DNA of 64,000 bases from a virus. This document shows positions 1,184 through 51,077 of the stretch, in pieces (position 1 is the stretch's first letter; the number at the start of each line of letters is the position of its first letter). The stretch is taken from positions 1-64,000 of the IMG/VR virus record IMGVR_UViG_3300047444_000198, one strand, 5' to 3'. The notes under the pieces are model-generated. The model did no database searches. It saw only the letters and a list, made by a program, of their open reading frames with translations, and was not told where the DNA came from. The position numbers and the translations under genes are program-made.

Positions 1184-1999
1184 TCATCGTTCAGCAATGC
1201 TCTCCCACCACTCTGTGGGAGGGTGTGTCGTAGTGGACGGCGGCGTGTTAGCAGAGCCGGTCACCCACATGCCGGAAACAGTCTCCTGCATCCGGTACAA
1301 GAGCTTCTGGATGTAGGGCTGAAGCTCAAGATCTTCGAGGCGGTCCTGCGGAATGTCGGTCTGGATGGACAGGGTGATGATCTTGCGGAAGATGCGCCGG
1401 GAAGCGCCCTCCTGCGTAGCAACATCAGCCTGCGCCCAGTCCAAGAACTCCAGGCGCCGGTACACCTGATCAGCGGGCACCAGGAGCCACTTGGGCCGTG
1501 GCCCGATGACGTCTCGGATCATGCGCGCCGTCAGCATGCGATCGTGCACCGCATTGTTGGTCCACAGACCCACCTGGTAGTAGAGCCGGTAGGTGATGTA
1601 GTGGGCGCGACGGAAGAACAGGCCCGGGTACTGGTCCGCATCGATGCTGGGTGACGTCGAAGGGTCGTAGAGCCCCATCCTGACGAACGACCCCTCGTCC
1701 TCGATCTGCTCCGAGTCGGGGAACAGGTCGTACTCGCTGGTGTGCAGATCGTAGGCAGGCTCCACGCCGATCAGGTCGATCGTGGCGAAGGGGTAGGTGG
1801 TGGCATGGGCGGCGTCGGGGTAGCGGTACCAGACCCGGATGGTGTCATCGACACCCGTGCTCTTGGGGAGCTTGATCGCCCCCTCCAGGTAGGCCTTGAG
1901 CGCTTCCTCCTCGGCCAGGATGAACCCCAGGTGCTCGGGATACTCCGGGGGTGGCTGCGGAGGCTGACGAGGCCTCGTGCGGGGTGTCTGCGGCGCCAT
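1184..1999 (-). CDS. Putative tail completion/neck-associated virion protein
   Basis: 271-aa ORF immediately upstream of the sheath, coupled to its neighbour. Function from position only. Confidence 0.55.
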   Translation of the reverse strand: MAPQTPRTRPRQPPQPPPEYPEHLGFILAEEEALKAYLEGAIKLPKSTGVDDTIRVWYRYPDAAHATTYPFATIDLIGVEPAYDLHTSEYDLFPDSEQIEDEGSFVRMGLYDPSTSPSIDADQYPGLFFRRAHYITYRLYYQVGLWTNNAVHDRMLTARMIRDVIGPRPKWLLVPADQVYRRLEFLDWAQADVATQEGASRRIFRKIITLSIQTDIPQDRLEDLELQPYIQKLLYRMQETVSGMWVTGSANTPPSTTTHPPTEWWESIAER

Positions 2000-4209: not shown

Positions 4210-4372
4210 GCTCGACGTCCTTCCGTTCTCGGGCTTCCTGGAACGCCTGGCGAATCATATCCACCACAGCGTCCTCGTCGCTGGGATCGAGAATCACCGA
4301 CAGGAGCACCGGGCCGTAGAGAACTGTCAGCTTCATGCCCCCTGTCTCTGTTGTCTCAGCATGAATCTGCAT
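4193..4372 (-). CDS. Small hypothetical protein
   Basis: AAGGAG 6 nt before ATG 4372; fills a gap in the operon. Confidence 0.5.
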   Translation of the reverse strand: MQIHAETTETGGMKLTVLYGPVLLSVILDPSDEDAVVDMIRQAFQEARERKDVEHVYTG

Positions 4373-4383
4373 GGGGTGCTCCT

Positions 4384-7077
4384 TCATGGGTTCAGCGCTT
4401 GCCATCGGTTCCCGTCCCAGATCTTGGTATCTGTCTCCCATCGCGTGCCGTTCCACACTTCGATCGGTGGTGCACCCACCTCCTGCATTTCCCAGGTTCC
4501 ATTTCTGAACACGAAGACGCCTCCCGCGAACGTGACGATCGAGAGCGTGCCACCCTGAGCGGTACTGATCCCCACTGAAGCGCCAGCAAGTGCCACCGCT
4601 CGTACCAGAATCCCGCTGACGGTACTGGTGCCATCAGAGCGCCCCGCCATCTGCACGGTCCCATACATGGCCCCGGTGACCGTTGACGAACCATCTGAAC
4701 GTCCTGCCAGAGCCAGAGCCCGCACAAGGTTCCCTGAAGCAGTACCCGCGCCATCGGACTGGCCTGCCAGAGGCCGCAGCACAGACAGGGAACCAGTAGC
4801 ACCGCCTACACCACCACTGGTACCAGATAGGAACTTGGCGCCCTGCGTCATGTCCCCTAGCGCCTGACTGGTGCCATCGCTCCGTCCGGCCAGGGCACGA
4901 GCGACAGGCATCCCCGAAGCTAGACCAGTGCTGGTACCGTCACTTTGAGCGCCCAAAGCCCGCTGGACGGGCATTCCGGTGGCTGAGCCGGTGCTGGAGC
5001 CGTCGCTCTGGCCTGCCAGTGCCCGCTGGACGTCCAAACGGGAGGCGGAAGCTGCTCCCACACCTGCCGAGGTCCCTGCGAGCGCCAGAGCGGTCCCCAG
5101 AGCGCTCGTGGTACCGCCTACACCGGCCGAAGTACCAGCGAGGCCTCGGGCCACGTTGGTAGTGGGCGCCGTAGCACTACCAACTCCATCAGACTGGCCA
5201 GCGAGGGCGTAGGCCACGTTCATCGCGCCGGAAGCGCCACTCGTACCATCAGACCGGCCCGCCAGTTGTACGACACCGCCAGCCAGCGTCCCTGCTGCTG
5301 CCGTGGACACCCCATCAGATCGCCCAGCCAGCGCACGAGCCACCGCCATGGTCGGTGTCGTGATGCTCCCGACTCCCGCAGACGAGCCCGCCATAGCAAC
5401 CGCAGCGTTCAGCAGGCCCGATGCCGCACTCGTACCGTCTGATTGTCCAGCGAGAGCTACCGGACCACCGACGTGCCCAGCGATCCACTTGGCGTTGAGG
5501 TAGTTGAGGAGATTGGTCTGGTCGGTCGAGGTGAGCGCCGTGTTGTAGACGATCACGTCGCCGTACTGGCCGGTGAACGGCGACCCCCACGACGGCGGCT
5601 CGTTGCCGATAGTGATGTCCTGCACGGTGAAGTTGCCGTTGGAGTCGGTCGGGTTCAACGTGGATGGGACCCCATCCACGAACACCTGAATAGTTGAACC
5701 GTTACATACCGTCATGGCGACATGCCAAGCATTGATGGGCAGGTCGAATCCACTCTTGACGCCGTTGCGACTACACGACGGGAACGTGATCCCCAGGCCT
5801 GCGTCAGCCTCCTTGGAGAACAGCGCCATGTTCCCAGACCGGTTCCAGTCGCTGTCAGTTGTGACGCCCGCGCTCAGGGCTCGGATGTACTGCGGGTCGG
5901 CGGTGCGGTTGAACACGATGACAGCGGTGAGCGTCGGTCCAGCGACGATGTTGGTACTACCGTCGTACACCAGACGCTCAGTGGTGTTACCACCCAAGGC
6001 CAGAGTGGAATGGCCGTTCTGGTTGGCCCCGACTGTGATCGTGCCACTGTCAGGGAACGCGACCATGGTGTGCCCAGCGCCGGACTTGTCAGTGATCGAC
6101 GTGACGTTGCTACCGGAGGTGACGAGCGAGTCGGACGGGTCCCACCAGCCAATGCACCCAGCGATCTGTGTGGGGTCGAAGACAGAAGCAGCCTTGATCT
6201 CCAGACCACTCGCCATGTAGTTGGAGGCGGTATCCAGCCCGGTCCACGTGAAGGTGGACGAGCCACCCCCGTTGATGTAGGCGGTACGTGCCTCGACACC
6301 CCATGCTGGGTGCACTTCGTTGAGGCCGGTGAACCCAGTCGGCAGCGTCGAGACGACCACCGAGTTGTCGGCGTGGATCACCGAGAAAACGAGCGACGAG
6401 GCTGCCGGTGCCGCGCCGAGCGTGCAGACGAAGGTTGTGGGACCGGCAGATTGGCGAGCCGTCGTTCCGCTCGTTGCTCCGATCGGTGAGGACGCTTGGC
6501 CGTTGACCTCGGTGACGTCAGCCCAGAGGAAGCCGTCCGTAGTGGTGGTGATGGTCCCACCATCAGCCGTAACGGCAAAGTGAACGGTGCCCGACCCGGG
6601 CGCAGAACCCATGGGACAAGTCCAGATCTCGACCTGCTCCATGTATTGACCGTTGGTGGTGACCGGAGCACGGGTACAGGTGGCCTGTTTGGTCCACGTC
6701 CCCTTGCCTGTCGTTCCGAACGTGTCGGACATGGCCACCGTGAGGCCCGAACCGCCGATGCCGTCATAGCGAGCATTTGCTATCAGTTTCACGACGAGGA
6801 TCGAGCCAGCCGCAGGTGTGAACGCCGTTGACGTAGCCGCCATCGTGATGGTGCCGCCACTCGGTCCGGCCTGGAACGTCCCGCGATCCGTGGGTGTGAG
6901 AGCACTGACAACAGACGCAGGAGGCAGACCAGAGTTGACGGTCCGCGACGGGAGGCCAGCCCCCAAGGTGAACTCTAGATTCTCCAACCCATATGTCGTG
7001 GCCTCTGTGGCCACACCACTGAAGACTTGCGAACCCAGTGGCAGGGCGTTACCCGGAGTGGTGGCGTATCCGGGCAT
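4384..7077 (-). CDS. Large fibre/adhesin-like virion protein with LamG/ConA-like domain and about 15 LAGxSxG repeats
   Basis: GWWDPSD...WHVAMTVCNG..IQVFVDG...FTGQYGDVIVYNTAL resembles LamG. The C-terminal half is ~21-aa Ala/Gly/Ser repeats followed by a WNG-repeat tail. Confidence 0.7.
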   Translation of the reverse strand: MPGYATTPGNALPLGSQVFSGVATEATTYGLENLEFTLGAGLPSRTVNSGLPPASVVSALTPTDRGTFQAGPSGGTITMAATSTAFTPAAGSILVVKLIANARYDGIGGSGLTVAMSDTFGTTGKGTWTKQATCTRAPVTTNGQYMEQVEIWTCPMGSAPGSGTVHFAVTADGGTITTTTDGFLWADVTEVNGQASSPIGATSGTTARQSAGPTTFVCTLGAAPAASSLVFSVIHADNSVVVSTLPTGFTGLNEVHPAWGVEARTAYINGGGSSTFTWTGLDTASNYMASGLEIKAASVFDPTQIAGCIGWWDPSDSLVTSGSNVTSITDKSGAGHTMVAFPDSGTITVGANQNGHSTLALGGNTTERLVYDGSTNIVAGPTLTAVIVFNRTADPQYIRALSAGVTTDSDWNRSGNMALFSKEADAGLGITFPSCSRNGVKSGFDLPINAWHVAMTVCNGSTIQVFVDGVPSTLNPTDSNGNFTVQDITIGNEPPSWGSPFTGQYGDVIVYNTALTSTDQTNLLNYLNAKWIAGHVGGPVALAGQSDGTSAASGLLNAAVAMAGSSAGVGSITTPTMAVARALAGRSDGVSTAAAGTLAGGVVQLAGRSDGTSGASGAMNVAYALAGQSDGVGSATAPTTNVARGLAGTSAGVGGTTSALGTALALAGTSAGVGAASASRLDVQRALAGQSDGSSTGSATGMPVQRALGAQSDGTSTGLASGMPVARALAGRSDGTSQALGDMTQGAKFLSGTSGGVGGATGSLSVLRPLAGQSDGAGTASGNLVRALALAGRSDGSSTVTGAMYGTVQMAGRSDGTSTVSGILVRAVALAGASVGISTAQGGTLSIVTFAGGVFVFRNGTWEMQEVGAPPIEVWNGTRWETDTKIWDGNRWQALNP

Positions 7078-20039: not shown

Positions 20040-20040
20040 G

Positions 20041-20114
20041 TCGGGGTGACAGGACTTGAACCTGCGACCTCTGGTCCCCCAGACCAGCGCGCTAACCAAC
20101 TGCGCCACACCCCG
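20041..20114 (-). tRNA. tRNA-Pro(GGG)
   Basis: CGGGGTG acceptor, TGGCGCAGTTGGTTAGCGC D-arm, CTGGT-CTGGGGG-ACCAG anticodon arm, GGTTCAAGTCC T-arm, CACCCCG-A. CCA not encoded. Confidence 0.95.
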
Positions 20115-28172: not shown

Positions 28173-28558
28173 GGTTCTACTTCCTATGAGCGCACCATGG
28201 AACCCCAGCGGGTACCGCGCCCCCCATCGGAACCACCTCCTGAACCGCAGCAAGTGGCACCGGGACAAGCAGTTCCCCTGCTGGTGCGGCGAGAGCCTGG
28301 TGCCGCGCTACCGGATGTTGGTGGATTGCTGCGTTGACTACCTGTACATAGTGGGACCACACGTGTACCTAGACCTGGAGGAGAGCAGTGAGTCCAGAGC
28401 GGATCAGGGAACGGTGTCAGTACCTGATTGAGCGAGGCCAAGGGGACGAGCCCATCTGGACGAGCGCGCAGATGGAGGACATCGTGGTGGCGTACATGCG
28501 GGTCCTTGACGAGTATGCCCGAATCCGCACGGGCATTTCTTAGGGCTATACTGGGGAC

Positions 28559-28831
28559 ATGATCGATACGAACGATTTCGGGCGGCGGTTCGCTGACCGG
28601 CTCTTCGACATCTCGGCTGAGAACCAAGGGATCAGCCGGATCGAAGTAGTGCGGCGCTACCACACGGACAGCAAGTACAAGGGGATGGTGGACGCCATCG
28701 TGTGGGCCGCAACGACGGTGATCCAGTCGATCGAGCAAGACGGCTGGGACCCCCTCGGCTCACTGCAAGAGACCTTCCAGCACGAGGTGTCGGGCCTGCT
28801 GGACATCGATGCACCCGGTTCCGAGCACTGA
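28559..28831 (+). CDS. Hypothetical protein, leaderless
   Basis: TATACT, 6 nt, ATG. Its stop codon lies inside a 13-mer motif. Confidence 0.6.
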   Translation: MIDTNDFGRRFADRLFDISAENQGISRIEVVRRYHTDSKYKGMVDAIVWAATTVIQSIEQDGWDPLGSLQETFQHEVSGLLDIDAPGSEH

Positions 28832-29511: not shown

Positions 29512-31390
29512 TGACCTCTGAGGTTCCCATCTACCTGATCCTGTTCGGTGCCCAGGGCTACCGCAGCCACCCGATCCGCTCGATCCGCCACATCGGCATC
29601 GAGCGGATCGAAGAGGACGGACTCATGGTGGTACCACGTTGCAACGTCCACTACCGAGGCTCGAAAGACCTCAGCCCTCGCCGCTTCCGTGAAGCCGAGG
29701 GTGTAGAGCAGGACTACCCGGTGTGCAAGCGCTGTCTGGCCTGGAAGGAATACGACTACGGCGTATGACCAAGCACAACGTGTTCGTGAACGACAAGGTG
29801 CATGTCCGACGCCGCCAGTGCGAGACGTGCATCTTCGGGAAGAACTCCCCGATCAACACCGAGCGTCGCGACGAAATGGTCGCCAAGTGCGGTGACGAAG
29901 GTGTTATCCCCTGTCACAAGCACATCCACCAGGATGCGCCGATCGAGCCGGTCTGCCACGGCTTCTACGCCCTCAAGGGCAACATGACCCTGCGCCTGGC
30001 GGATGCGCTCGACTACATCGAATGGTGGGACGACTGATGTCGGCGGCTAGCGAGATGACGGCGGTGCTCAACCGCATGCAGGCCTTACTGGATCACCTCA
30101 AAGCAGAGCCCTGGATCGAGTACGACACGATCTTGGTGCGCTCCGAAGTGATCCTGACAAAGCGGGCCTTCACAGAGCTACAGAAGGTCGCCAAGGCGAT
30201 CAGCAAGGTCAGGCCCGAAGACACGAGAGGGCCGGGTGTGCCGTGGTACGAGGGCGTACTGGACGACATGGTATGAGCACCGCCCACCACCGCACCGACT
30301 GGGAGGTCTACGCCGTCAGCGCCTGCTGGGTGGCGATGTGGGTCGTCCTAGCCATCTGCTTCACCATCCTGGCGATCTACGGCACCATGTTCGGCGTGGC
30401 CACGATGAAGGCGCACTGGCCATGAGCCGCAACAACCGACGCGGTGCAGGCCACAAGAAGCCCGCGCCGAGTGACCGGCGTATGACGCCCCACCATGACC
30501 GAGAGGTGCGGTATTGGACGCCAGGTGAGGATGACGACGTGCCCTTCGGGTTCCACGAGACGAACCTGGCCCCCTGGGAGCAGCCCTACGCCCTAGAGGA
30601 CGACAAGGAGCAGGAGTGATCCGCTACTTCCTCCAGGGTCGCTACGGCCCGTGGTACGAGATCGAGGAGATGCAGTGGGCCGAGGCAGTGGGCCTGCCCG
30701 TGGTGACTCAGCCCGACGACTACCTCTACGAGGAGTACGACCTGCCCCTGATGCGCTGTGTCGTCGTCAACACCGCCAAAGCCTGGAAGGACGACATCAA
30801 GCGAGAGTTCCCCGGGCTCCAGGACTTGATCTGGTTCCCCGACATGCGCTGCGGCGAGTGCGGAGGCCGTCTGGTGGACGAACTGGCCTCAGAGCCCGAC
30901 AAGCGATACCCGCGCTACGTCCACGCCACCGGCATGATGGACCGCCATGGTGCCTGGCCCGTGGAACAATGGGACTGATGACTGTCGCGCTGATGGGCCT
31001 CGATGACCGCGTGATGCACCTGCCGAGCGATGAGCACGGCAAGGCGCAGTGCGGCGAGCGCATGCGCGACCCCTGGGCGGCTGGCCCTCTGGAGACGATT
31101 GCTCAGTCGGCTTCCGAAGCCTGTGAAAGCTGCTTCGATTTCTAGCCACTGACACTGACAACTACGGTGCCGCCGTGCACGTGATGTTGGTGGAGCGCCT
31201 GGACCGCCACAACCGGGTCGTGGTAGCACATGGCACCGTCGATGGTCAGGCCGCAGGCGCGTTCGTGCGCTCCCTGGTCACCGACACGATCTCGGCCGAG
31301 TGTGAGGACGGCTGGGATCTGTGGCGCTGGTACGTGCGTCAACACAAGGGCCGACGTCAAGTCAACAAGGTCAACATCTACCGCGCCTAG
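29511..31390 (+). other. Run of translationally coupled small hypothetical CDSs (29511-29768, 29765-30037, 30037-30276, 30273-30425, 30422-30619, 30616-30978, 30978-31145, 31175-31390)
   Basis: ATGA/TGATG overlaps tile the interval; several have Cys/His zinc motifs and one has a TM helix. Confidence 0.6.
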
Positions 31391-31557
31391 CTGTCAGTGT
31401 CAGTGGCCCATAGTGGCCCTTATGTCAAGTCGGGCGCTGGTAGCCGCTCAGCGCGTCGTGGCATCGCTTCCGTTCGGTGCTGTCATGATCGGTGATCGGA
31501 CGCCCACATTCGGGACAGCACGGTTCGTCAGTCACGCCGCGACGCTAGACGCTGTCA

Positions 31558-37094: not shown

Positions 37095-37985
37095 TCAGGC
37101 GTGGTGCATGGGGTACTGCCCACGGTAGTCCGGCGTGCTCGCGAGGCACGGTTCCCCCACGGTCTCGACCAGGTTGGCACCACACTCGGCGCACGCTTCC
37201 GACAGGATGGCGTCCACGGTCGTGTAGCTAGGCGCTACCACCTTTCCGGACGGACGGGTCACGGGCCGACCGAGCACGTCGGCAGCTTCCTCATAGGTGG
37301 GATACCACCAGCCGTGACGGGCGGCGCACTTCGGGCCGTACCCGGCCGCGAGGGACCTGTCGTCGTCAATATCAAGTCCGCAGTTACAGCAGAAGCCGTG
37401 CAGCTTCCCGAACGCGGACGCTTCCTCCTGGCTCATGGCATGGGCGACGCCCTCGCTCACGTAGCGCTTGACGATGGCGACACCACCCCGCACGTAGTCG
37501 AACGTGCGCCCACGGAGCACCTTGCACGCCTGATAGCCGTTCTGAGTCGTGTACAGCTTCCACACCGCGGACCCATCGTCCAGCGTGTAGAGACCGTTAT
37601 CGAGCACCAGGGTAGCGGCGGCGACCGTAGCCGCATCCGCCACGGCGCAATCGCCCTCATGATGGAACGTGAGCCACTTCCCGGTGCTTGACTTCTGAAT
37701 CCACCCAGCACCGGCCGGAACGTTCCCCTTGCACGTCTGGCACTTTCCGGGGTAGCCGTTCGACCGTTTGGCCGGAGCGGTAGCCGTGGCGGCGACAGTG
37801 TTCTTCATGCCTAGAAGCGCCTCGATCATGGCGCTAGCCGTGCCGGACTTCCCGCCCGTCAAGGTGCTCTCTAGTTGCGCCATGGCGGCGGGGACGTCAT
37901 TGATCCCGGTCTGGTCGGCGGGGATCTGCTGGAGCAGCGAACGGATGAAAGAGATCTGCTTAGGGGAAGCCGGTGCGTTGGTCAC
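37095..37985 (-). CDS. DUF6011-domain zinc-finger protein
   Basis: C-terminal CCNCG..I.DDRSL..GYGPKC; internal NGYPGKCQTC; N-terminal ASPKQI.FI. Confidence 0.75.
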   Translation of the reverse strand: MTNAPASPKQISFIRSLLQQIPADQTGINDVPAAMAQLESTLTGGKSGTASAMIEALLGMKNTVAATATAPAKRSNGYPGKCQTCKGNVPAGAGWIQKSSTGKWLTFHHEGDCAVADAATVAAATLVLDNGLYTLDDGSAVWKLYTTQNGYQACKVLRGRTFDYVRGGVAIVKRYVSEGVAHAMSQEEASAFGKLHGFCCNCGLDIDDDRSLAAGYGPKCAARHGWWYPTYEEAADVLGRPVTRPSGKVVAPSYTTVDAILSEACAECGANLVETVGEPCLASTPDYRGQYPMHHA

Positions 37986-40483: not shown

Positions 40484-40527
40484 AGTGTACCGGACGTGTT
40501 GACTCACCACCATGGGCCATTCGGCCC
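40484..40527 (-). promoter_or_regulatory. Promoter cassette P7
   Basis: Dyad, GGTGAGTCAAC, TACACT, 6 nt, ATG. Confidence 0.8.
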
Positions 40528-40550
40528 CTTATCTGGTGGTACCAAGTGCT

Positions 40551-40681
40551 GTCAGTGTCAGTGCGCTCGTCGGACCGTAGCGAGCACCGCAGGCCAGGGC
40601 ACCACCCCCAGACTCGGTCCACCATGTGGCGACAGGGGACCAACCTGGTCGCTACGGCCCGAACAACGCACTGACACTGAC
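40551..40681 (-). ncRNA. Candidate structured RNA (33-bp imperfect terminal stem built on two 13-mers)
   Basis: 29/33 inverted repeat; two mismatches become G-U pairs on the minus strand; internal CCAGG/CCTGG and TTGGTCC/GGACCGA stems. Confidence 0.5.
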
Positions 40682-40990
40682 GGTCTAGAGCCCTTCCTCG
40701 TTGGCGAAGCGCTGCATCATGTTGACGCAATCGTCGCGGTAGCGCTCAGCAGCACACCACGCACTCTCGCCCTTGAACGTCTTGCCTCGCGGCCACGTGG
40801 TGGCCCACTCAGGGCGCTTGGAGACGCTGACACGGTGGGCGCCATCCTCGTAGCGGTAGCCACCACGTGAGTCGAGCAGCGGCCCGGTCTCGATCTGCAC
40901 GGCGCCGATGCGTGAGCCGTAGTAGCCGTTCACGTTGGTGCGGGCGATCGTGCTCCAAGGGCCTGGTGTGCTGTAGCGGGTCATGGGATC

Positions 40991-41034
40991 AGTCTACCGA
41001 TCCTGTTGACTCAACGCATGAGTCATTCGGCTCA
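40991..41034 (-). promoter_or_regulatory. Promoter cassette P8
   Basis: TGAGCC-GAAT-GACTCA, GTTGAGTCAAC, TAGACT, 6 nt, ATG. Confidence 0.8.
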
Positions 41035-41528
41035 TTGCATGCGAAGGCAGGATCGCACTCGTCCTCGCACGCCGCGCAAGGCAAGGGGCACGGTTCATCG
41101 TGGCGAGGATCGTGACAGTGCATCATCGTGCGCTCCAAGCGGCACGCTTGGCCTCGTCCACGCGCATCCGGTGCTGGGCCTCCAAGACCTGGGACTCCAA
41201 GACCTCACGCTCCGTCCAGCGCTTCACCTCGGAGGCGATCTGGTCAGCCGTGTCATTGCGGCCGATCATGGTCCACACCATCATCGAACCGTTGACGAAC
41301 GCAGGCCACGCGATCATCTCGTCGGCGTGCTTCTTGCACGTCACGAACGTGGCCCACCGCCATCCCATGGTGTCGGCCTCGTCCAGTACCACGTCGTTCA
41401 ACAGGCAGACGACGATGCGGTTGGCACGTGCGCTGCACCGGCCAGAGCCCTGGCACAGTCGGCCAGCGGCCCGGTTGCGCTCGCAGCGCTCGTATGTCTC
41501 TTGGCTCACGCTGTATCCCATGAGAGTC

Positions 41529-41572
41529 AGTCTACACTCTCTGTTGACTCAACGCCTGAGTCATTCGACTCA
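41529..41572 (-). promoter_or_regulatory. Promoter cassette P9
   Basis: TGAGTC-GAAT-GACTCA, GTTGAGTCAAC, TAGACT, 7 nt, ATG. Confidence 0.8.
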
Positions 41573-42440
41573 TTGTGGATGCGAGCCTCGGGGCCAAAGC
41601 CGCACCAGCACACCCGCATGCCGTACAGATCACAGGGATTGAACCGATGGGTAGCTGACGCGGCCGGGAAGTCATCCGGCGTGACCACGGTGAGCATGGT
41701 GGAACGCTTGGGCCGTTTCGGCTCATTGGTGGTCCAGCCCTCGTCGCTCTCGTTGTCGCGGTACTGGATGACCACCAGGGCACCGGGATTGATCTCCTGG
41801 TAGATGGCAGCCGCACTACGAGGGTGGTAGGCACTCGTGGGATCGAACGGGCCGTGCTGCATGGAGCAGCCATTGACCAGCACCATGTACTGGTAGCGGA
41901 CCATCTTGTCGGCCATTAGAACGTGCCCTCGTGCTCGGTGTAGTCGATGCCATCGAGAGCCGCAGCCATCTCGGGCGTGATCAGGGTGTAGCGCTGGATA
42001 TAGACGCCATGGTCCACGTCCTCGTCAGTGATGACGACCTCACCCGAACGGATGCGCTGGACTAGCTCGTCAGCGACCTCGTAGTCCTGGATGGTGTCCA
42101 GAGCGAAGGTATCCCAATCGCTCACGAGGTTGACAACCTCGCGGCCTCCAAGGAACTCATGCAGGAAGGCAAAGGGCGCACCGTCGTGGACACCAGGATC
42201 ACAGCCGTCGCCATCGGTGTTGTCGAGCCAGATCTGGCCGTCGAAGCGGACGACAGAGCCGCACTTGTAGCAGATGCTCGGGGTGATGGTCATGAATCCT
42301 CCTGGTCGTCGTCCCACTCGTCAGGAGTGGGACCGTTGAAGCGGCGCCCGTTGATAGACGACGCCCGGAGACGCTGACCATCACGGAACGCTTGGCGGTC
42401 CGCATCGTTCCAGCGGTGGAGTGTGCGGCTCATGTTGAAC

Positions 42441-42484
42441 AGTCTACTCCAAGAGTTGACTCAACACATGGGCCATTCGGCTCA
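42441..42484 (-). promoter_or_regulatory. Promoter cassette P10
   Basis: Dyad, GTTGAGTCAAC, TAGACT, 7 nt, ATG. Confidence 0.8.
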
Positions 42485-43126
42485 TTCGGCGCAGACCTCG
42501 GCCCACTCCAAGGGGAACAGAGCCACCACCGCATCGTCGGACCCTTCACAGGCTCGCAGGTAACGCTTGATCAGCGCTGACTCGTCCTCGGTGCAGTCGA
42601 TACCGTCGCGCTTGCGCTGGATGGTGGCCGTCAACTCACTGAGGATGACCACGTTCGGGTTGGTCTCGGGGCCGTCACCGACCACCATGCCGGTACAGGC
42701 CTCGTGATGGTCACTCACCACGCAGCCACACTCGGGGCACAGGGCCTCGCAGGGGTAGGGCGCGTGGTCCATCTCGTCGTACGAGGCGCCGCACGTAGTG
42801 CAGAAGTCACCGCCACCAGTGTGAGCATGATCCTCGCCCCGCACGTCCTCGTAGGCCTCGATGCGGCCATCCAGGAGCGCCTGACCCGTTATTGAGCCGG
42901 GGCCAACGATCTGGTTGTTGTTGGCGATGCGCCGGTTGACGTCAGCGATCATGGCGAGCACCGTGGCCCTCGTGTCCAGCAAGGCGTTGGCGTAGCCCGC
43001 CTGGTTGGCCCGCTGCACGTTGTTGCCTGCCTGGTCGTACTCACGGCAGCGCTGCTCGGCGTAGCGAGCCTGGGCAGCCAGGCTGTCAGCTAGTTCTTGC
43101 AGGTTGGTGGGGTTGGTCATGATGAG

Positions 43127-43171
43127 AGTCTACCTCCCTCTGTTGACTCAACGCCTGAGTCATTCGACTCA
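43127..43171 (-). promoter_or_regulatory. Promoter cassette P11
   Basis: 35 bp identical to P9; TAGACT, 6 nt, ATG. Confidence 0.8.
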
Positions 43172-43710
43172 TCCTCAGGCTTCCAGTTGAACGGGCGACT
43201 GAGGCTCAGCTTGCCTGCGTTCACAAGCTGCTGGATGGCACCAGCGGCCTCGTCCGAGACGTTGGCCTCACGGATGACGTGGAGCAGGTAGGCAGCGTCC
43301 AAGGCCCGACGACGCTGGGTAGCGGCCCTCTGCTCAGCCTGTTCGGCCTCAAACTTGGCACGCTGGGCGCCGATGCGCTTCTGGTAGGTCTCGAAGTCAA
43401 CGACCTGGCGCTTGTTGACCAGGTAGTACTGACCCTCTCGGTAGGTGCTCGGCTCACCCTGAGCCTTGTCGGCCTCGACCGTCACGACCAGGACGTAGTC
43501 ACCGCCCCGCGACTTGTAGCCGTACCAGTCCTCGATGGACTGGCCTTGCCTCATGTGGACGGGGCCGGGACCACTGCCACTCATGTTGGCCCGAACGACG
43601 CGCACGGTGGTCCACTGCGACTTGTCGGCATCCCAGCCAGTGCGGCCGGAGCGGTTGATCAGGGCGTAGACCTTGCGGCCCTCCCACATTTCCTCGTATT
43701 TCATGATGTA

Positions 43711-43765
43711 AGTCTACCTAGTTTCGTAGGGTTCGGGAATGGGTCATTCGGACTGTTAACTCAAC
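43711..43765 (-). promoter_or_regulatory. Promoter cassette P12
   Basis: GTTGAGTTAAC upstream of the dyad; TAGACT, 6 nt, ATG. Confidence 0.75.
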
Positions 43766-44570
43766 ACCCTCCAAGGGTGTCAGTGTCAGTGCCTCACCAC
43801 GGCCCGCACAGACCGTGATACCGCTCGGTCAGGCCGGAGCCGTCACAGATCGACCAGCGGTAGCGGTAGACCTCGCCCTGGGCGATCGGCCCGGAGCAAT
43901 CGTCGCACTGGTACTCCTTGCGGGCACGCTGTAGGCGTGTCACCACCAGGACCGTGCCGACTTCCTCGTCGTGATGGACCCGAAGCTCGCTCATCCGTAC
44001 GCCTCCATGATGGCAAGCTCGGCCTGGTACTTGACCAGAGCCTCGGCCGCACCCTTCGCGAGCCGGTTGTAGGCATCAGCGGCGCGGTTGACGTTCTGCG
44101 TCAGGCTCGCCCGACGTGCACCCTCGGCATGTGCGGCCTCGTCGCGCAGGTAGCGCTGGACCGTGGCCTCGACCGCCTCCAAGAGGGGCCGCACGTACGT
44201 CTTGGGCGCTCCACCCATGGCTCGGGCTAGCTCGTAGTCCACCGTGCCGTCCTGGGGGATCACGCCGTAGACCTGGCTGTTGCTGTCGCCCTTGGCGTCG
44301 CGCTCGGCCTGGTTGCGGGCGTACCAGTAGCCCTTGGGCTGGCCCTGGTCGTTGGTGTGGATGTACCGGATGGCGTACTCGTTGCCCCGGTAGACCAGCG
44401 TGCCCTCTACGAACACGTCATCGGTGCTCATGGCACACACCATGAGTCCACCGGTCACCTTGCCGTGGTTCACGTCCATCTGGACGTTGGCGACCCGCTC
44501 GTGCCACTCGGGCACCGGAACGGAGAGGGGGAGAGTTTCCTCAATGTCGTAGGTCTTGGTCATGAGCACA

Positions 44571-44614
44571 AGTCTACGCTTGTTGAGTCACCACCGCATG
44601 AGGCAAACGGACCA
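44571..44614 (-). promoter_or_regulatory. Promoter cassette P13
   Basis: Degenerate dyad, GGTGACTCAAC, TAGACT, 7 nt, ATG. Confidence 0.75.
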
Positions 44615-45318
44615 TTTCGTCAGGTTCCGTGTCAGTGTCAGTGGCCTCGATGGTGGGATCACCGTGCAGAGCAAACGTGTGCTCGCAAGGCTCACCCTTG
44701 GGCGGGGCGAACATGATGCGCTCCACGTCCAGCCGGTCGAGAGCATCCAGCAGAGGCACGCACGCCGTGACCATGGCACCCAGGATGAACAGGGCGCCGA
44801 TCATCGCCGCGACCTTGTGCGTGCCCTCCGCGAAAGCGCCTGTGTACACGTAGCCGCCGACCGTGAACAGGACACCGGTAGCGCCCATCCAGCACCAGAA
44901 GCGTTTGCGCTGGCTCATCGTGCGTGCACCGGGCAGTGCTTCCCCTCGTCGTGCAGGATGCCACCGCCCCGAAGCTCACGGCCGGTGCACAGAGACTCCA
45001 TGGCCTCAGCACACACGGCCGGATTGTCGAACGTGAGCAGGAGCGTGTACGGACGGGTGCCGTACTCAGCTTTGGCTACGAACGCCACATTGATCCAGTG
45101 CTCACGGTACCGATGCTCTTGTGTCACTCGATCAACCCCCGGTGTCGTGCTTCGCCCTCCAAGCAGTCTCGCATGAGGTCGGTTCCCCAATCCTCTCCAA
45201 GACGACGACGAAGCTGGGCGTCCGTCATGTCGCGCACGTCCAAGCCGTTGATCATGGCCTGGCCCTTACGGGGACGCTCACCGGGTCCACGTGTCTGCTG
45301 GTAGTCGCTCACGATCAC

Positions 45319-45363
45319 AGTCTACCCGCCATTGTGTTGACTCACCATGAGCCATCCGGCCCA
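45319..45363 (-). promoter_or_regulatory. Promoter cassette P14
   Basis: TGGGCC-GGAT-GGCTCA, GGTGAGTCAAC, TAGACT, 6 nt, GTG. Confidence 0.75.
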
Positions 45364-45368
45364 TCTTG

Positions 45369-45423
45369 TGGAGCACCGGGGAGTCGAACCCCGCTAGCTA
45401 CCCATGCCCCGATGGAGTGCCCC
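45369..45423 (-). ncRNA. 55-nt tRNA-like mini-RNA (Ala-type acceptor plus T-arm)
   Basis: GGGGCAC/GTGCTCC-A acceptor with G3-U70; CGGGG-TTCGACT-CCCCG T-arm; only 23 nt between acceptor and T-arm. Confidence 0.6.
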
Positions 45424-45759
45424 GTCAGTGTCAGTGCTCAGGCCAGCACGAAGAACGCCAGCGTGACCACCACCATGGCCGCAAACAACACCTTGCCAGC
45501 CAGGCGATGGCGTACTGACCAGGGGTAGCGCTTGCGGTAAGCACGGCGCTTCACTCGGTACCGGCGCTTGACGTCACGGTCCCAGGCTCGGCGCATCTTG
45601 CGCTCACCACGCCGTGTCTCGACCACGTGCATCCGGCCGTAGACGTCTACAGGCACCTTGATCGAGCAGAGGGGCACGTCGCGAGAGGACCCAGCGGTGC
45701 CGTTGACGGGAGGAGGAGGACCAGTCAACGGCACCGATGAGGGTGGGGGAGGAGGCAAG

Positions 45760-46341
45760 TCAGACCCCGGCTCGTGCCGCACGCTCACGGGTGACAAGTA
45801 CCAGCCACGCGCCTCCAAGAAGGAGGGCAATCGCTCCAAGGGCCAGCGGAAGCGAGACGGTACCGGTCGTGGGTAGTTCCGTAGGGACGTGCGGTGCAGG
45901 AGTGGCAGCACTGTCCGGCGTACTGACGTCCGGCGTGGTGCTCGGCGTGGGGGGAGCAGTGGTGGCAACGGTGGTCACCACGCTCGGGGGCACGGTCGTC
46001 TCCACAACGCTGGGGGGAGTCGTGGGGGGCACCGATGATTCTGGCGTGCTCGTGACAGGTGTAGACGTGGGAGGCACGCTGGACTCAGGCACGCTGCTCG
46101 GTGCGCTGCTAGGCGGTACCGATGACTCGGGCACAGACGAGACGGGCACGCTGCTCGGCTCGCTGCTCGGGGTGCTGGACGGCGGCACACTGCTGTCAAC
46201 CTCCGTGCTGCTCGGGGTGCTGCTCGGCGTGGACGTGGGCGGTTGGTAGCTGTGACTGCCGTGGGCCGACGCAGAGCCGATGACGAACGCACTCCCGCCG
46301 AACATCACGGCACCAGCCAGTAGCAGGTGCTTGATGTGCAT
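45760..46341 (-). CDS. Ser/Thr/Pro-rich LPXTG cell-wall-anchored protein
   Basis: Signal peptide, SVPESSVPP repeats, then LPTTG, TM segment and basic tail. Confidence 0.8.
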   Translation of the reverse strand: MHIKHLLLAGAVMFGGSAFVIGSASAHGSHSYQPPTSTPSSTPSSTEVDSSVPPSSTPSSEPSSVPVSSVPESSVPPSSAPSSVPESSVPPTSTPVTSTPESSVPPTTPPSVVETTVPPSVVTTVATTAPPTPSTTPDVSTPDSAATPAPHVPTELPTTGTVSLPLALGAIALLLGGAWLVLVTRERAARAGV

Positions 46342-46391
46342 GGTTCGGCACCCTATCAGGCTCCAAGATTCATAGGGATAGGCCGTTTGCC

Positions 46392-47051
46392 CTATTGCTT
46401 GCAGGCACGCCTGTGAGTCAAGCACACCAGGACCACGCCCACCAGCACCGACATGACTCCAACACTCCCCAGGGGCACGCTCGGGCTACCGGTGACCGGC
46501 AGGGAGGCAGCCGGGGCCGTTGTTGCCACATGGTGCGACTTGGGTGGGCCTGTACGGACCTCTGAGGCCGTCTTGTCAGTGTCAGTGGCTACCGGTGACC
46601 CTGCCAGCGCCGTTGACGGCTCCTGCGCCACTACAGCGGTCGTGGTGGTGGGATCAGGCGTGGTAGCTCGGGGACTGTCACAGGACACAGGCTCCTGCGT
46701 GGGTGATCCAGGGACGATGCACACCGGCACGCCGCCGATGACCGTCTGGTGCGGGGTGGTATCAACCGGGGCCGTGGTCGTGGTAGTGGGCGCGCCACAC
46801 GCCACGTCTCGGGATGCAGTCCAAGGAGTGAACACCTTGGTACCGTCTGACAACGTGCCAGCGACCCGGCCGCTCTCGCTCAGAGTGTTGCGAAGCTGAG
46901 CCGTGATGGCCTTGCTCTCGCCCGGTCCCAGGTCCAAGCCGACGATCCATGAGTCGGCCGTGGCACTCTGACCGTGGAAGGCCAGCGCCGCATCGTTGGT
47001 GATGGTGACTACCACGTGGTAGTCACAGTCCATCGAGCCGTTGGCGATCAT
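46392..47051 (-). CDS. Thr/Pro-rich LPXTG protein
   Basis: LPVTG, TM segment, HRR tail; no clear signal peptide at the called start. Confidence 0.65.
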   Translation of the reverse strand: MIANGSMDCDYHVVVTITNDAALAFHGQSATADSWIVGLDLGPGESKAITAQLRNTLSESGRVAGTLSDGTKVFTPWTASRDVACGAPTTTTTAPVDTTPHQTVIGGVPVCIVPGSPTQEPVSCDSPRATTPDPTTTTAVVAQEPSTALAGSPVATDTDKTASEVRTGPPKSHHVATTAPAASLPVTGSPSVPLGSVGVMSVLVGVVLVCLTHRRACKQ

Positions 47052-47485
47052 GCCTGGCCCATGATGTTGCGGGCGTCCCGAATGAGAGTCACCAGCGTGC
47101 CCGGAGCGCCGTCAGTGGTGAAGTCGTCAGCGACGTGACGAACGAAGCTCGCAAGCTCGCCCACGTCGTACCCCTCGCTGGGCGAGTCTCCCTCGGGGCT
47201 GTCGCCGTACATGAGCCAGTTGCTCAGCGTCTCGTCCAGGTCGGTGATCTTCTCCATGGCGTCGTCGCCGTAGAACTTGATCTCACAGCCAACAGAGCCG
47301 TAGACGATGTGGAGCGTGTGACCGGTGCGACCGATGACCTCGACGCCATTGCTGGTGTAGCGCTCGGGCACGCTGGTGAGTTGAACGCTGGTGACGGTGT
47401 CCAGCTTAATCGTCTTGCGCTGGCCGAAGGTGTCCCACAGGCAGATAGCTCGGGCGTTGACGACGTAGTCGGTGTAACTGCTCAT
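47048..47485 (-). CDS. Hypothetical protein
   Basis: Leaderless from a promoter cassette. Confidence 0.65.
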   Translation of the reverse strand: MSSYTDYVVNARAICLWDTFGQRKTIKLDTVTSVQLTSVPERYTSNGVEVIGRTGHTLHIVYGSVGCEIKFYGDDAMEKITDLDETLSNWLMYGDSPEGDSPSEGYDVGELASFVRHVADDFTTDGAPGTLVTLIRDARNIMGQA

Positions 47486-47489
47486 GCAG

Positions 47490-47879
47490 TCAGTCTAGTT
47501 GCGTTGACTCAACAGCGCATGAGTCGTTCGGCTCATCTTCCAGCACGTCCCACACGTTGGTCACGAACTCGACCAGGGGCAGGATGGGATCACCGCGCTT
47601 GCACGTCCACTGCACCAGGCCCAAGCCGGTCAACCGGCGCACGTGACCTTGTACACAGGACGTGCTGAGACCGGTCCTGTCGCGCAGATCGTGAATGCTC
47701 TCCACGCCGTCCATGACATGGAACAGAAGCTCGGTAGCAGTCGGACCCACGGCCTCGAAGCCACGCATGCGCCAGTAGCCGATCTGCTGCGGTCGCCAGT
47801 TGGGACCTAGCTGCTGCGGCGCAGAGGGCGGAACTACAAGAGCCTCCGGAGAGGCAGGGTCATCCGGAGGCTCCTGCAT
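47490..47879 (-). CDS. Winged helix-turn-helix protein
   Basis: SIHDLRDRTGLSTSCVQGHVRRLTGLGLV. Confidence 0.65.
   Translation of the reverse strand: MQEPPDDPASPEALVVPPSAPQQLGPNWRPQQIGYWRMRGFEAVGPTATELLFHVMDGVESIHDLRDRTGLSTSCVQGHVRRLTGLGLVQWTCKRGDPILPLVEFVTNVWDVLEDEPNDSCAVESTQLD
47492..47535 (-). promoter_or_regulatory. Promoter cassette P15
   Basis: Dyad, GTTGAGTCAAC, TAGACT, 6 nt, ATG. Confidence 0.8.
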
Positions 47880-47886
47880 CGGTTCC

Positions 47887-47931
47887 AGTGTAGCGGCTTT
47901 GGCACCCTCTACACATGGGCCAAACGGCTCA
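47887..47931 (-). promoter_or_regulatory. Promoter cassette P16
   Basis: TGAGCC-GTTT-GGCCCA, TACACT, 7 nt, ATG; palindrome displaced to about 47962. Confidence 0.7.
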
Positions 47932-48104
47932 TTCGACTGTCAGTGTCAGTGGGCGAATCGTGATGACTCACCATGACAGGAACGTGTGTTCTTACCCCTC
48001 CTTGGGGGTGCTGCGTGGTGCAGGCTCGGGCGGCGCAGCATCGAGCACAGCATCGAGCAGTTCGCCGGGGTTGGGCAGGGGCTTGACGTCGAGCGGTTCG
48101 TCAT

Positions 48105-49358
48105 TCATGAAGGCCACGCTTTCGTAAAGATGTTCTGCTTCATGTCCCGGTAGATCTGGTACTTGGTACCACTTGTGGCCTGCCACCCAAAGCTGTCCTC
48201 TCGACCGTCGCCGGTCTTGCGGTCGATGGCACAGAACCAGAAGAACGGGCCGAGACGGTTGGCGTACTGGTTGAGGCAGCCACCGGGGAGGTAGGCGTTG
48301 AGCGCATCCTGAGCCCGCTGTGACTGCGTGGCCTGATTGCCACCCACGGCGCTACGGGGACAACCGGTCTCGGTGGTCCACAAGCTCACGCCCCGCCCTG
48401 GTGCGTACTTGTCGATGATGGCGAGCGCCGCCGCCACTGCCTTGGGTGACCATGACGGCCAGTTACCCACGTCCTTGCACGCCGTGTCGGTGTCCAAGTA
48501 CGGGTGCCAACCGACAGCATCGCAGGCCGAGAACAGACCTTTCTGGCCGTAGCTCTCGATGGTGGACAACGCGCCACACCCTGGCGGGGACGGCTGGCCG
48601 GTGGACTGGAACACCGTGTCGGCCGTGGACAGGCCTCCGCTCACGACGATCATCTGAGGCACTGACGCCTTGATCGCCGGGTAGGCAGCCTTCATCATGC
48701 GCGTGTACTTGCCTCGGTAGGCGTCATCCGTGGACGGCTGGCCGGTCCAGAAGCCGGAGAGATTCTGCTCGTTCCACAACTCGATGGCGGTCACGCCCAT
48801 GTTCCACAGGTGCCCCGCCGCCTTGCTGCACCAGTCGGCATAGTCCCCGTCGTTGGTGGGCGGGTTCTTGTCGTTGGACGCCCCGTTCATCCATTGAGGC
48901 AACATGTACAGAATCGGTAGAGGCTTGATTCCGCGGGTCAGGGCCACTTGGACCCAGCGGTCAGTGTCGGCCCAGTTGTAGACGCCCTTCTGCGGGGACA
49001 CCTGGCGCACCGGGTAGTCACCACGCCACCAGCCCGCGCCGACGTCCTTGATTATGTCGCCCTGTTGGGCCAGGAAGTCAGACGGCACGCCCTGCACCTG
49101 CTCTAGCGGCATGGAGAACGCGCCATAGCGCTGGCCGAGAGTCTGTGTGGTCGTGGGCGGCTGGATCGGGGGCTGGATGGGCGGCTCAACCGGGGGTGTG
49201 ACGGGCGGCTTGTACGCCGCTAGGGCGTCAGCGTCGGCATTGATCGCCGCCGCTGCGTTGTTGACGTTGGTCGCCTGTTGAGTCAGGGCGGTGCCGACGT
49301 TGGTTAGGGCGGTGGCCTGCTTACGCAGGTCATCGATGACTGGTTGCAGGTCACTCAT
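48105..49358 (-). CDS. Clan GH-A glycoside hydrolase (GH5/GH39-like) with N-terminal coiled coil and Pro linker
   Basis: IELWNEQN (acid/base), DAVGWHPY, LWTTETG (nucleophile), GVYNW..D. Confidence 0.82.
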   Translation of the reverse strand: MSDLQPVIDDLRKQATALTNVGTALTQQATNVNNAAAAINADADALAAYKPPVTPPVEPPIQPPIQPPTTTQTLGQRYGAFSMPLEQVQGVPSDFLAQQGDIIKDVGAGWWRGDYPVRQVSPQKGVYNWADTDRWVQVALTRGIKPLPILYMLPQWMNGASNDKNPPTNDGDYADWCSKAAGHLWNMGVTAIELWNEQNLSGFWTGQPSTDDAYRGKYTRMMKAAYPAIKASVPQMIVVSGGLSTADTVFQSTGQPSPPGCGALSTIESYGQKGLFSACDAVGWHPYLDTDTACKDVGNWPSWSPKAVAAALAIIDKYAPGRGVSLWTTETGCPRSAVGGNQATQSQRAQDALNAYLPGGCLNQYANRLGPFFWFCAIDRKTGDGREDSFGWQATSGTKYQIYRDMKQNIFTKAWPS

Positions 49359-49384
49359 GCAACCGAACCGTAACACGTCACCAC

Positions 49385-51077
49385 TTACCCCTCAGCGACC
49401 AGCCGTTCAGCCTCCACGAACAGATCCAGGTCGAAGATGCGTACCAGGTGGAAGGCCCGACACAGGTCGCCGCCGTCCTCGTCAACGATGATCCGGTTGT
49501 GATCGCCCTTGACCATGGCATCGATGGCGTCGCGGCAGTCCGGGATGGCGTTGGGGCACTCCATCGCCCACGTCATCCACCACGTGAGCGCATGCTCGGT
49601 GCCCTTGAACAGGATCATCTCGGGCAGGAGTTGAGCCAGCGGGTGTTCAGTCATCCGTCCAGCCTCTTGCACGTGGCGCATTCCGGAGCATCTGATGCGG
49701 TGCCCTTCCACGTGGAGTACGTGATGAGCACGCCACACAGGGTCAGTTCAGCACCACCAGGGATACCACGGACGTGGTGAGCGGCGACGTGCTGCTCAGT
49801 TGCCAGGCCCTCGGCATTGACCGAGACGTCGGGGTAGTTGACCGTAGTCATGACGTCAGGTAGTTCACGACGATGTTGCGGGCGTCGGGCCACTCGATCT
49901 CGACCTGCTCGGCGTAGACAGCAGCCGTGATCTCATCGGAGAAGGGCACCGAGAAGTGCTCAGGCCCAGCGAAGTGCGGACCATCGATGGAGAAGGTGAC
50001 GGAGTGGGTGGGAGGCATGGTCTCAGTCTACTCCCTCTGTTGAGTCATCACCATGGGTCATTCGGCCCTCCGTGGTCTGCGCGCCATACCTCGTAACGAG
50101 CCTTGACGATCACCAGGACTGTCAGTGTCAGTGCACTCAACAGCGCGATGCGCTTCATATCGTGCCCCTGAGCATCACACTCTTGACCGTGACCGTTATC
50201 TCGGGACTCAGATCTTCGGCCTCAGCAGCGATGGCCTCGGCCAGAGTGTTGATGTTGAGCGTCGGCTCGTCAGGATTGGGCGGCTCGTGATGCACCACCC
50301 GCAGCGTCACCTCGTACTCGTAATCGTGCGCCTTCATGCGTACGGGCCGCTCGGATTGTACGGGCGCACCGTCACGTCACCAGGCTTGTCCCACACCACG
50401 GTCCCTGATTCCAGGTCCAGGATGTACGGGGCATTGTCCCACGTGGGCGACTCCATCCAGTCGGTGAGCCGCAGAGCATCGTCAGGCGCGAAGCCCTGAC
50501 GCTCCATGGTGCGGCGAAGGGACGCCCGCCGCCATGCCTTACGAAACGTCTGACGCTTGCCCATGCTCTGTCCCTCTCGTCTCTTTGACCCACCCTGCCC
50601 ACCAGGACAGAGCATCGTACAGGTTCGGTACCTCGGGGAAAGTCTCGGGGTGACCGAACCAGGTGGAGCGGACCACGCTATTGCCGTGCACGTCGTAGCC
50701 CTTGAAGATGGCGACGTAGTCACTGGTCGTGACCGTCTTGGCCCGGTGGAACAGCGACCGGCGCACGTCCACCAGCCACGCGTACTCGTAGTCGAAGTCA
50801 GCGAACGCCTGTACCCACATCCACGTGGTGTCGTCCACTCGGGTGCCCTCGGCCGGTTGCACGGCAGCCAGCTTGTTCAGGATGCCCGCTAGCTCGTCGT
50901 TCACCAGATCGGTGCCGTGGATGGCCCGACGTTGGGCCGCAGTAGCAGTCATCACCGCCCCAATCTAAAGACGGTGATGACGAGAGCGAGCAGAGAGACC
51001 GGACGGACCCGCCGCTGCTCACGGTACCGGAGCGCTCGGGGCTGCTTCCGCAGCCGCATGGGAGGCATGGGGAGCAT
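49385..51077 (-). other. Small hypothetical CDSs (49385-49654, 49651-49851, 49848-50018, 50155-50337, 50334-50564, 50539-50952)
   Basis: Mostly coupled start/stop overlaps; 49848-50018 starts leaderless. Confidence 0.55.
50025..50068 (-). promoter_or_regulatory. Promoter cassette P17
   Basis: Dyad, GATGACTCAAC, TAGACT, 6 nt, ATG. Confidence 0.8.

Follow-up and report, generated by a model that had tools for sequence, protein, structure and literature searches.

The first 64 kb of the uncultured phage record IMGVR_UViG_3300047444_000198 (G000; 76.4 kb in total, 63-65% G+C), a stretch of 64,000 nucleotides (nt) to which we refer as the window, carries on its minus strand a 55-nt element (45369-45423) that combines the acceptor stem and T-arm of an alanine transfer RNA (tRNA-Ala) with a short interior from which the anticodon arm is missing. 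Sequence comparison indicates that this element, here called a mini-tRNA, is the gene of a conserved tRNA-Ala look-alike, as opposed to a chance fold, a dead tRNA or the core of a phage attachment site (attP), and that its fold and alanine identity set are kept by selection in 11 distinct phage sequences. It is very probably a functional RNA gene whose product mimics a tRNA of alanine identity, while to the fuller statement, that this product is a trans-acting, processed tRNA mimic recognised by alanyl-tRNA synthetase (AlaRS), we assign a probability of roughly 0.55.

The minus-strand sequence quoted in an earlier note on this DNA was found at exactly the coordinates given there, and the parts which that note had described, namely a 7-base-pair (bp) acceptor stem with G3:U70, the discriminator A73, a canonical T-arm and a 23-nt interior, can all be seen in it. 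The acceptor stem consists of seven perfect pairs, the G3:U70 wobble included, and is followed by U8. The interval that replaces the D and anticodon arms (45416-45394) contains a CCAU/AUGG hairpin, which in the window copy has 4 bp and a C-C mismatch and in most relatives 5 bp, and then a linker whose 8 nt stand in for residue 26, the anticodon arm and the variable loop. The parts of the element are as follows.

45369..45423, minus strand: mini-tRNA from G1 to the discriminator A73, 55 nt (read from the sequence; 77.4 bits with the covariance model R2 described below)
45417..45423, minus strand: 5' strand of the acceptor stem, GGGGCAC (pairs 1-4 invariant and G3:U70 present in 11 of 11 members; pairs 5-7 covary)
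45402..45415, minus strand: D-arm-like hairpin CCAU/AUGG with GG in its loop (three of five pairs changed on both sides; GG invariant in 11 of 11)
45394..45401, minus strand: 8-nt linker in place of the anticodon arm, with the 6-nt palindrome UAGCUA at 45395-45400
45377..45393, minus strand: T-arm, 5-bp stem and UUCGACU loop (100% paired; two covarying pairs)
45370..45376, minus strand: 3' strand of the acceptor stem, GUGCUCC (sequence and covariation), with A73 next to it at 45369
45366..45368, minus strand: 3' trailer CAA (C74 kept in 11 of 11 members; a full CCA encoded in 5 of 11)

Homologues, covariation and alanine identity

Relatives of the phage were gathered through the portal protein and scanned with a script of our own, written to look for a T-arm preceded by a perfect 7-bp acceptor stem of any sequence. 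It recovered this architecture, 23-nt insert included, from two of them: G001, whose complete 118-kb genome is terminally repeated and whose portal shows 79% identity, and G002. Relative to the window copy, both carry compensatory changes in each of the stems. A BLAST search of 20 related records with the element gave no match, and a first covariance model, run over 50 portal-related records, placed the element in G001 and G002 only. Further members came from pattern scans of viral contigs and metagenomes, and a separate scan, in which only the interior and T-arm were specified and the acceptor stem was left free, added two more distinct members (L190/L191 and L192), which have G-C in place of C-G at acceptor pair 5:68 but retain G3:U70 and A73 and encode CCA. 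In total, 11 distinct homologues were counted, the window copy among them.

From six of these members we built the covariance model R2, with a membership cut-off of 50 bits. The 11 distinct members score 50-86 bits, compared with at most 45 for other mini forms and 20-32 for real tRNAs, and the window element reaches approximately 77 bits with an E-value of about 1e-17. On this sequence evidence we propose a new family, the high-GC phage alanine mini-tRNA with palindromic linker (53-55 nt), defined by a 7-bp alanine acceptor, U8, a 4-5-bp hairpin with a GG loop, an 8-nt linker containing a 6-nt palindrome, a T-arm and an R2 score of at least 50 bits; the window element has every one of these features. 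A second match of the covariance model in the window (37660-37726, 24.8 bits) was dismissed, as it lies inside a coding region and has no T-loop motif, and a scan of the 76-kb genome for a T-arm joined to a perfect acceptor stem found nothing besides the element and a real tRNA-Pro.

As regards wider occurrence, literature searches found no published description of such a family, and blastn searches of GenBank phage DNA with the 1.2-kb region, the element and a consensus-like member returned only the T-arms of ordinary tRNAs and no family member. Nor was any member found in 185,579 bacterial and archaeal species genomes (one genome each), a scan that yielded only other truncated tRNA-Ala-like sequences, from Mycobacterium, Nocardia and Acidimicrobiia. 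The 25 nt of T-arm and 3' acceptor strand, together with the 7-nt 5' strand, match exactly those of genuine 73-nt tRNA-Ala(UGC) genes from the tRNA arrays of two unrelated, AT-rich phage contigs (L004 and L005), and the element, judged by its sequence, is derived from tRNA-Ala.

Folded by itself, the window sequence is unremarkable (z = -0.79); the support for the element comes from the comparison of homologues. In an alignment of the 11 distinct sequences that was fitted to the model, which favours structure, pairing holds in 98.2% of cells, and for 10 of the 20 pairs both partners have changed, with 30 cells affected. These values were not reached in any of 500 shuffles, and when the 3' partner was slid by 1-3 columns at most one such pair was left. 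An ungapped MAFFT alignment of six members gave the same picture of covariation. The earlier note had named the lack of a discrete RNA and of structural conservation as one outcome that would undo its proposal; the covariation in these homologues is strong.

The acceptor stem divides into two parts, with pairs 1-4 (G-C, G-C, G:U and G-C) never varying and pairs 5, 6 and 7 all covarying. The bacterial alanine identity set comprises A73, G2-C71, G3:U70 and G4-C69, and G1-C72, G2-C71, G3:U70 and A73 are conserved in nearly all tRNA-Ala (PMC9976931), so that the invariant block covers what AlaRS reads. In the sequences themselves, the set is present as pairs 1-4 in all 11 members and as A73 in nine. 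A control scan with the same pattern carrying G3-C70 gave nine matches and no genuine mini form, the sole 'perfect' match being internal to a full-length tRNA, compared with approximately 20 distinct mini forms for the pattern with G3:U70. Also invariant in the family are U8, the GG of the hairpin loop and UUCGA of the T-loop; in tRNA, U8, the GG of the D-loop and the T-loop UUCGA are the residues that form the elbow.

Conservation ends with the molecule. Upstream of G1 there is no conserved flanking sequence, and downstream all 11 members have C74, six have C at position 75 and eight have A at position 76, with no conservation beyond. Bounded in this way by G1 and C74, the conserved unit is exactly a molecule of mature-tRNA size. 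For the idea of a processed and possibly aminoacylated RNA, put forward in the earlier note, it is favourable that the alanine marks are intact and that the conserved ends match those of mature tRNA, as would fit both processing and charging.

The linker adds a further conserved property, in that the family shows five different linker palindromes: UGAUCA, UAGCUA (in the window), UCGCGA, UCAUGA and UGGCCA. When these are treated as pairs 24:29, 25:28 and 26:27, self-complementarity extends to 97% of cells. Both partners differ in six cells, where shuffles gave 1.3 +/- 0.8 and none of 500 attained the observed value, and controls with the palindrome slid fall to 4-45%. As a 6-nt palindrome cannot fold on itself, it is most simply read as a site at which two RNA copies pair. 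In RNAcofold the two linkers are predicted to form a duplex, 8-19 kcal/mol more favourable than two monomers, the program drawing only the form in which the acceptor strands are swapped. Palindromes of at least 6 nt were not clearly commoner in the inserts of other mini forms than in shuffled sequence, and the claim for a palindromic linker is confined to the proposed family.

Proposed role and competing explanations

In the mechanism that we favour, RNase P would cut the RNA from a longer transcript at G1, by analogy with tRNA biology, the 3' end would be trimmed, CCA would be added where it is not encoded and host AlaRS would charge the mini-tRNA with alanine. AlaRS requires only an acceptor helix with G3:U70, and we lean towards the view that the mini-tRNA is charged in vivo. 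Without an anticodon arm it cannot decode. The mimic would tie up or divert some host factor by which the acceptor/T-arm half of (alanyl-)tRNA is recognised, candidate targets being a tRNA-directed defence toxin, the trans-translation machinery, AlaRS and EF-Tu; this role as a decoy or competitor we put forward tentatively. Through the self-complementary linker two copies could also join, with the two-copy duplex standing at the position of the anticodon stem, and the modelled duplex makes it conceivable, if somewhat doubtful, that the mini-tRNA acts as a homodimer. More speculative still is the idea that an alanine-charged dimer, a 'double-headed' tRNA held together by the linker helix, traps or misleads a host factor that measures whole tRNAs, such as a tRNA-directed immune nuclease or transferase, or the ribosome-rescue factors.

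Several observations weigh against this account. The discriminator is G73 and not A in two of the 11 members, most of which were retrieved by patterns requiring alanine-type acceptor ends, and G000, G001, L190 and L192 alone make up the unbiased test of G3:U70. The evidence for the palindrome comes from five linker variants only. No RNA runs containing the stretch are listed, and thus transcription, processing, CCA addition and charging are all inferred. Finally, a comparison of nine contexts, within 6 kb to each side, brought out no common flanking protein that would hint at a target.

A possible alternative for the product would be an analogue of those transfer-messenger RNAs (tmRNAs) that have been reduced to the tRNA-like domain (TLD), titrating host SmpB and blocking trans-translation, as has been proposed for mycobacteriophage DS6A, which is listed as carrying little beyond the TLD of tmRNA (PMC4131195). 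Work cited in PMC4131195, and taken up again in PMC11915505, found tmRNA in E. coli to be strongly inhibited by a TLD-only molecule irrespective of its chargeability, perhaps through titration of SmpB. The alanine acceptor, the T-arm and the missing anticodon arm are shared with such molecules, and the Rfam tmRNA model (RF00023), under relaxed settings, aligns with the element from end to end, but at 12.5 bits against a gathering threshold of 47 and with 328 model positions collapsed to 20. The stemless D-loop and P2 helix of tmRNA are absent, however, with a closed 4-5-bp hairpin in their place, and the DS6A RNA scores only 22.7 bits with the family model. Inhibition of the DS6A type is, moreover, independent of chargeability as far as the relevant passage of PMC4131195 goes, whereas AlaRS identity is strictly kept in the family. 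With the region of tmRNA-specific contacts missing while the marks of chargeability are conserved, we regard titration of SmpB as unlikely. No SmpB gene was found in the phage records tested. That the element is itself a tmRNA was rejected, since it is 55 nt long and has no tag reading frame, no pseudoknots, no stemless D-loop of the GGnnUCGAC type and no P2 helix; the likeness to tmRNA drawn in the earlier note is a general one, confined to the alanine acceptor and T-arm.

The same sequence could act in cis, as an RNase P/RNase Z processing signal that splits a polycistronic early transcript and releases an RNA without function. The window copy would suit such a role, since it shares the strand of its neighbours and has a stop codon on one side and the next promoter on the other; 10 of the 11 distinct members likewise point the same way as the genes flanking them. 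It is well established, however, that RNase P has no need of G3:U70 or of invariant pairs 1-4, and the gene downstream of the window copy has a promoter of its own. The G001 copy runs antisense to the genes on both sides of it, in a place not syntenic with that in the window, and has its own sigma-70-like, promoter-like site with an extended -10 box 69 nt upstream. A signal in cis would also leave the covarying palindrome and the conserved C74 unexplained, and we consider it, too, improbable.

Still less probable is a private alanine carrier for non-ribosomal transfer, in which a transferase of the Fem/MprF type would use the charged RNA to modify the cell wall, a lipid or a phage product. Staphylococci have a non-proteinogenic tRNA-Gly, to which a carrier of this kind would bear some likeness, but no FemAB-family gene was found in G000, in the complete genome G001 or in three other records that carry the element, and the nine contexts have no protein neighbour in common.

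The origin of the element from tRNA-Ala raises the question of whether it is simply a decaying pseudogene from which the anticodon arm has been deleted. Besides the identity of its acceptor and T-arm to real tRNA-Ala(UGC) of unrelated phage contigs, it could be pointed out that G000 has no tRNA-Ala of the kind that its relatives have beside tRNA-Pro. The sole canonical tRNA called in the window, by ARAGORN and at Rfam gathering thresholds, is a tRNA-Pro(GGG) (20040-20114, minus strand), with coding-like sequence where tRNA-Ala would stand; G001, G002 and G015 carry a tRNA-Pro(GGG)/tRNA-Ala(GGC) tandem upstream of the terminase region (31337-31506 in G001; L091). Against this, the 11 distinct sequences keep an insert of 21-23 nt and show compensatory changes and no broken stems, and G001 has both the mini-tRNA and a real tRNA-Ala(GGC), the former at a different locus from the tRNA pair, so that the mini-tRNA is not a remnant of tRNA-Ala. 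Covariation and constant architecture rule the pseudogene out, and we give it almost no weight.

A copy of the 3' end of a host tRNA or tmRNA gene that serves as an attP core, or some other DNA-level site, is the least credible of these explanations: such 3' ends are common integration sites and the 3' half of the element resembles them, but neither G000 nor G001, which is complete with terminal repeats, has a Phage_integrase or Resolvase match (tyrosine or serine recombinases), the 5' strand covaries with the 3' strand, for which an attP core has no need, and the bacterial and archaeal genomes scanned contain no family member. The attP core with incidental 5' pairing, against which the earlier note had itself warned, is thereby ruled out.

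Genomic setting of the window copy and its relatives

The DNA of the window is also present in soil and rhizosphere metagenome runs, and mapping of four such DNA runs revealed no sequence variants in the stretch. The portal protein of the phage is 59% identical to those of Streptomyces phages of the BRock group. The element lies in the early region (40500-50100, minus strand), where the gene order is shuffled relative to G001 and many genes are 35-78% identical as proteins. Neither of the open reading frames (ORFs) flanking the element belongs to a Pfam or PHROG family, and the upstream ORF has no relatives in viral contigs. The immediate neighbours of the element are as follows.

45424..45436, minus strand: copy of a 13-mer abutting G1, context outside the family (22 exact copies in the window; absent beside the other 10 members)
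45438..45968, minus strand: upstream ORF without known family, a single base separating its TGA stop (45438-45440) from the 13-mer
45310..45362, minus strand: promoter cassette of the next gene, leaderless type, with a dyad (45349-45362), TAGACT (45319-45324) and in-frame GTG start codons (45316-45318 and 45310-45312)

The promoter cassette (dyad, TAGACT and GTG) is repeated in the early region at approximately 40.5, 44.6, 47.9 and 50.1 kb, and small early-region cassettes, each with a leaderless promoter of its own, seem to move as units. The 13-mer, CACTGACACTGAC, occurs in the window in 22 exact copies (8963-57893), on both strands and often directly after stop codons, where about 3.6 near-matches would be expected. 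There are 26 copies in the whole 76-kb record and 0-2 in relatives of 70-79% portal identity, and the Streptomyces phages with the most similar portal protein (59% identity) have none; judged by this distribution, it is specific to the lineage of the window phage.

It is true, as the earlier note had it, that the 13-mer ends at G1 and that the promoter cassette begins past the 3' end, from about 45362. The view that this 'fusion' and the promoter form part of one device is not supported by the comparison, since neither adjoins any of the other 10 family members and the closest relative has the element elsewhere and in antisense. The 'fusion' to the 13-mer would thus be a local accident of where the module has landed.

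Those contexts of other members that could be annotated are phage-like, an example being L190, in which a terminase gene lies 0.9 kb downstream of the element. In L176 a 1510-aa phage protein (7838-12370, plus strand) that joins Acb1 (anti-CBASS), NUDIX and ADP-ribosyltransferase domains is encoded 1.4 kb from the mini-tRNA and divergently from it. The member in L174 lies 17 nt downstream of another tRNA-like gene (4274-4426, minus strand), which scores 42.1 bits with the Rfam tRNA model, has a 94-nt insert that replaces the 17-nt anticodon arm and is missed by ARAGORN. In L167 a 59-aa ORF with two CxxC pairs, zinc-ribbon-like in character (1210-1389, minus strand), ends 10 nt before the mini-tRNA; a small cysteine-rich neighbour of this kind was seen beside this one member of the 11 only.

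Comparison with known RNAs and other truncated forms

Existing tools pass over the element. The earlier note had suggested ARAGORN, tRNAscan and Infernal searches as a check, and the element is called neither by ARAGORN nor by Rfam at gathering thresholds. Under relaxed settings the best Rfam alignment is to mascRNA-menRNA (RF01684), over the full length and at 24.2 bits against a gathering threshold of 42.5; the L174 member, at 25.0 bits, also falls below that threshold. Apart from the tmRNA alignment already described, the permuted tmRNA model gave 8.1 bits, and the match to the tRNA model (RF00005) was dropped because it scored below the 12.5-bit tmRNA match of the same clan.

In kind, the family is closest to tRNA-like RNAs and to TLD-only tmRNA. 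The TLD-only ('CDS-less') tmRNA of DS6A, which we located at approximately 28479-28561 of JN698994, is likewise encoded by an actinobacteriophage, intergenic and on the strand of its neighbours, and has an alanine-type acceptor with G3:U70, A73 and a T-arm and neither an anticodon arm nor a tag frame. It is about 83 nt long, however, with a stemless D-loop of the tmRNA type and a capped P2 helix, whereas the family has 53-55 nt, a closed D-like hairpin after U8 and a palindromic linker. Given this different build, and its score with the family model in comparison with the 50-86 bits of members, the DS6A RNA is an analogue and not a member.

With tRNA-Ala and the minihelix-Ala constructs the mini-tRNA shares G1-C72, G2-C71, G3:U70, G4-C69, the usual A73, the T-arm, U8 and a GG able to meet the T-loop. 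It differs from tRNA-Ala in having no anticodon arm and in not being called by ARAGORN or the Rfam tRNA model, and from minihelices, which are laboratory constructs, in being a natural, conserved gene. The mascRNA/MEN-beta RNA (RF01684) is akin to it as a tRNA-like, non-decoding RNA of comparable length that tRNA-processing enzymes release from a longer transcript; that RNA is, however, eukaryotic (mammalian), keeps an anticodon-like stem and is not aminoacylated (PMC9976931), and the window element is below the RF01684 threshold.

Other alanine-type mini forms without an anticodon loop were found in L145, L119, L121, L150, L152, L163 and L170 and in Arthrobacter phage Elezi. They too have a perfect acceptor with G3:U70 and a T-arm, separated by an insert of 22-32 nt (43 in Elezi) compared with about 41 in tRNA, but the inserts differ from that of the family, some with a normal D-arm and some resembling the TLD of tmRNA, and none scores above 45 bits with the family model. 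The Elezi sequence (L205:560-628; approximately 42687-42755 of NC_071029) is unannotated and has, along with G3:U70 and A73, the T-arm of the window element; it carries a 6-bp hairpin with a 5-nt loop at the position of the anticodon loop and reaches 24.9 bits. As Elezi is a cultured phage, this form is accessible to experiment.

Two further groups came to light. The first, from Nocardia and Mycobacterium genomes and one metagenome contig (L184, L188, L169, L179 and L185), consists of short alanine-acceptor sequences with inserts of 20-26 nt that end in ...CUGGCAGUGUGGGGGUC before the T-arm; these may be D-arm-less tRNA-like genes or prophage remnants. The second comprises mini forms in L141 (2335-2395) and L147 (3575-3637) that are preceded by GGUUUCGAC, a tmRNA D-loop motif, and by their sequence look like DS6A-type TLD-only tmRNAs in other viral contigs.

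The tRNA genes of phages are usually explained by codon supply or by the replacement of tRNAs cut by host defences. Here, the alanine-charging half of a tRNA is clearly kept under selection without the anticodon arm, and so can serve neither of these ends; the family points instead to (alanyl-)tRNA mimicry outside decoding and would be a natural counterpart of the classic minihelix-Ala experiments. Neither tRNA finders nor Rfam detect the family, and its genes are therefore left without annotation in phage genomes. A double-headed mini-tRNA, were that idea to prove true, would be an RNA-only tool for counter-defence or host takeover in actinobacterial phages, and the family as a whole could reveal a new conflict between phage and host around AlaRS, EF-Tu, trans-translation or tRNA-targeting immunity.
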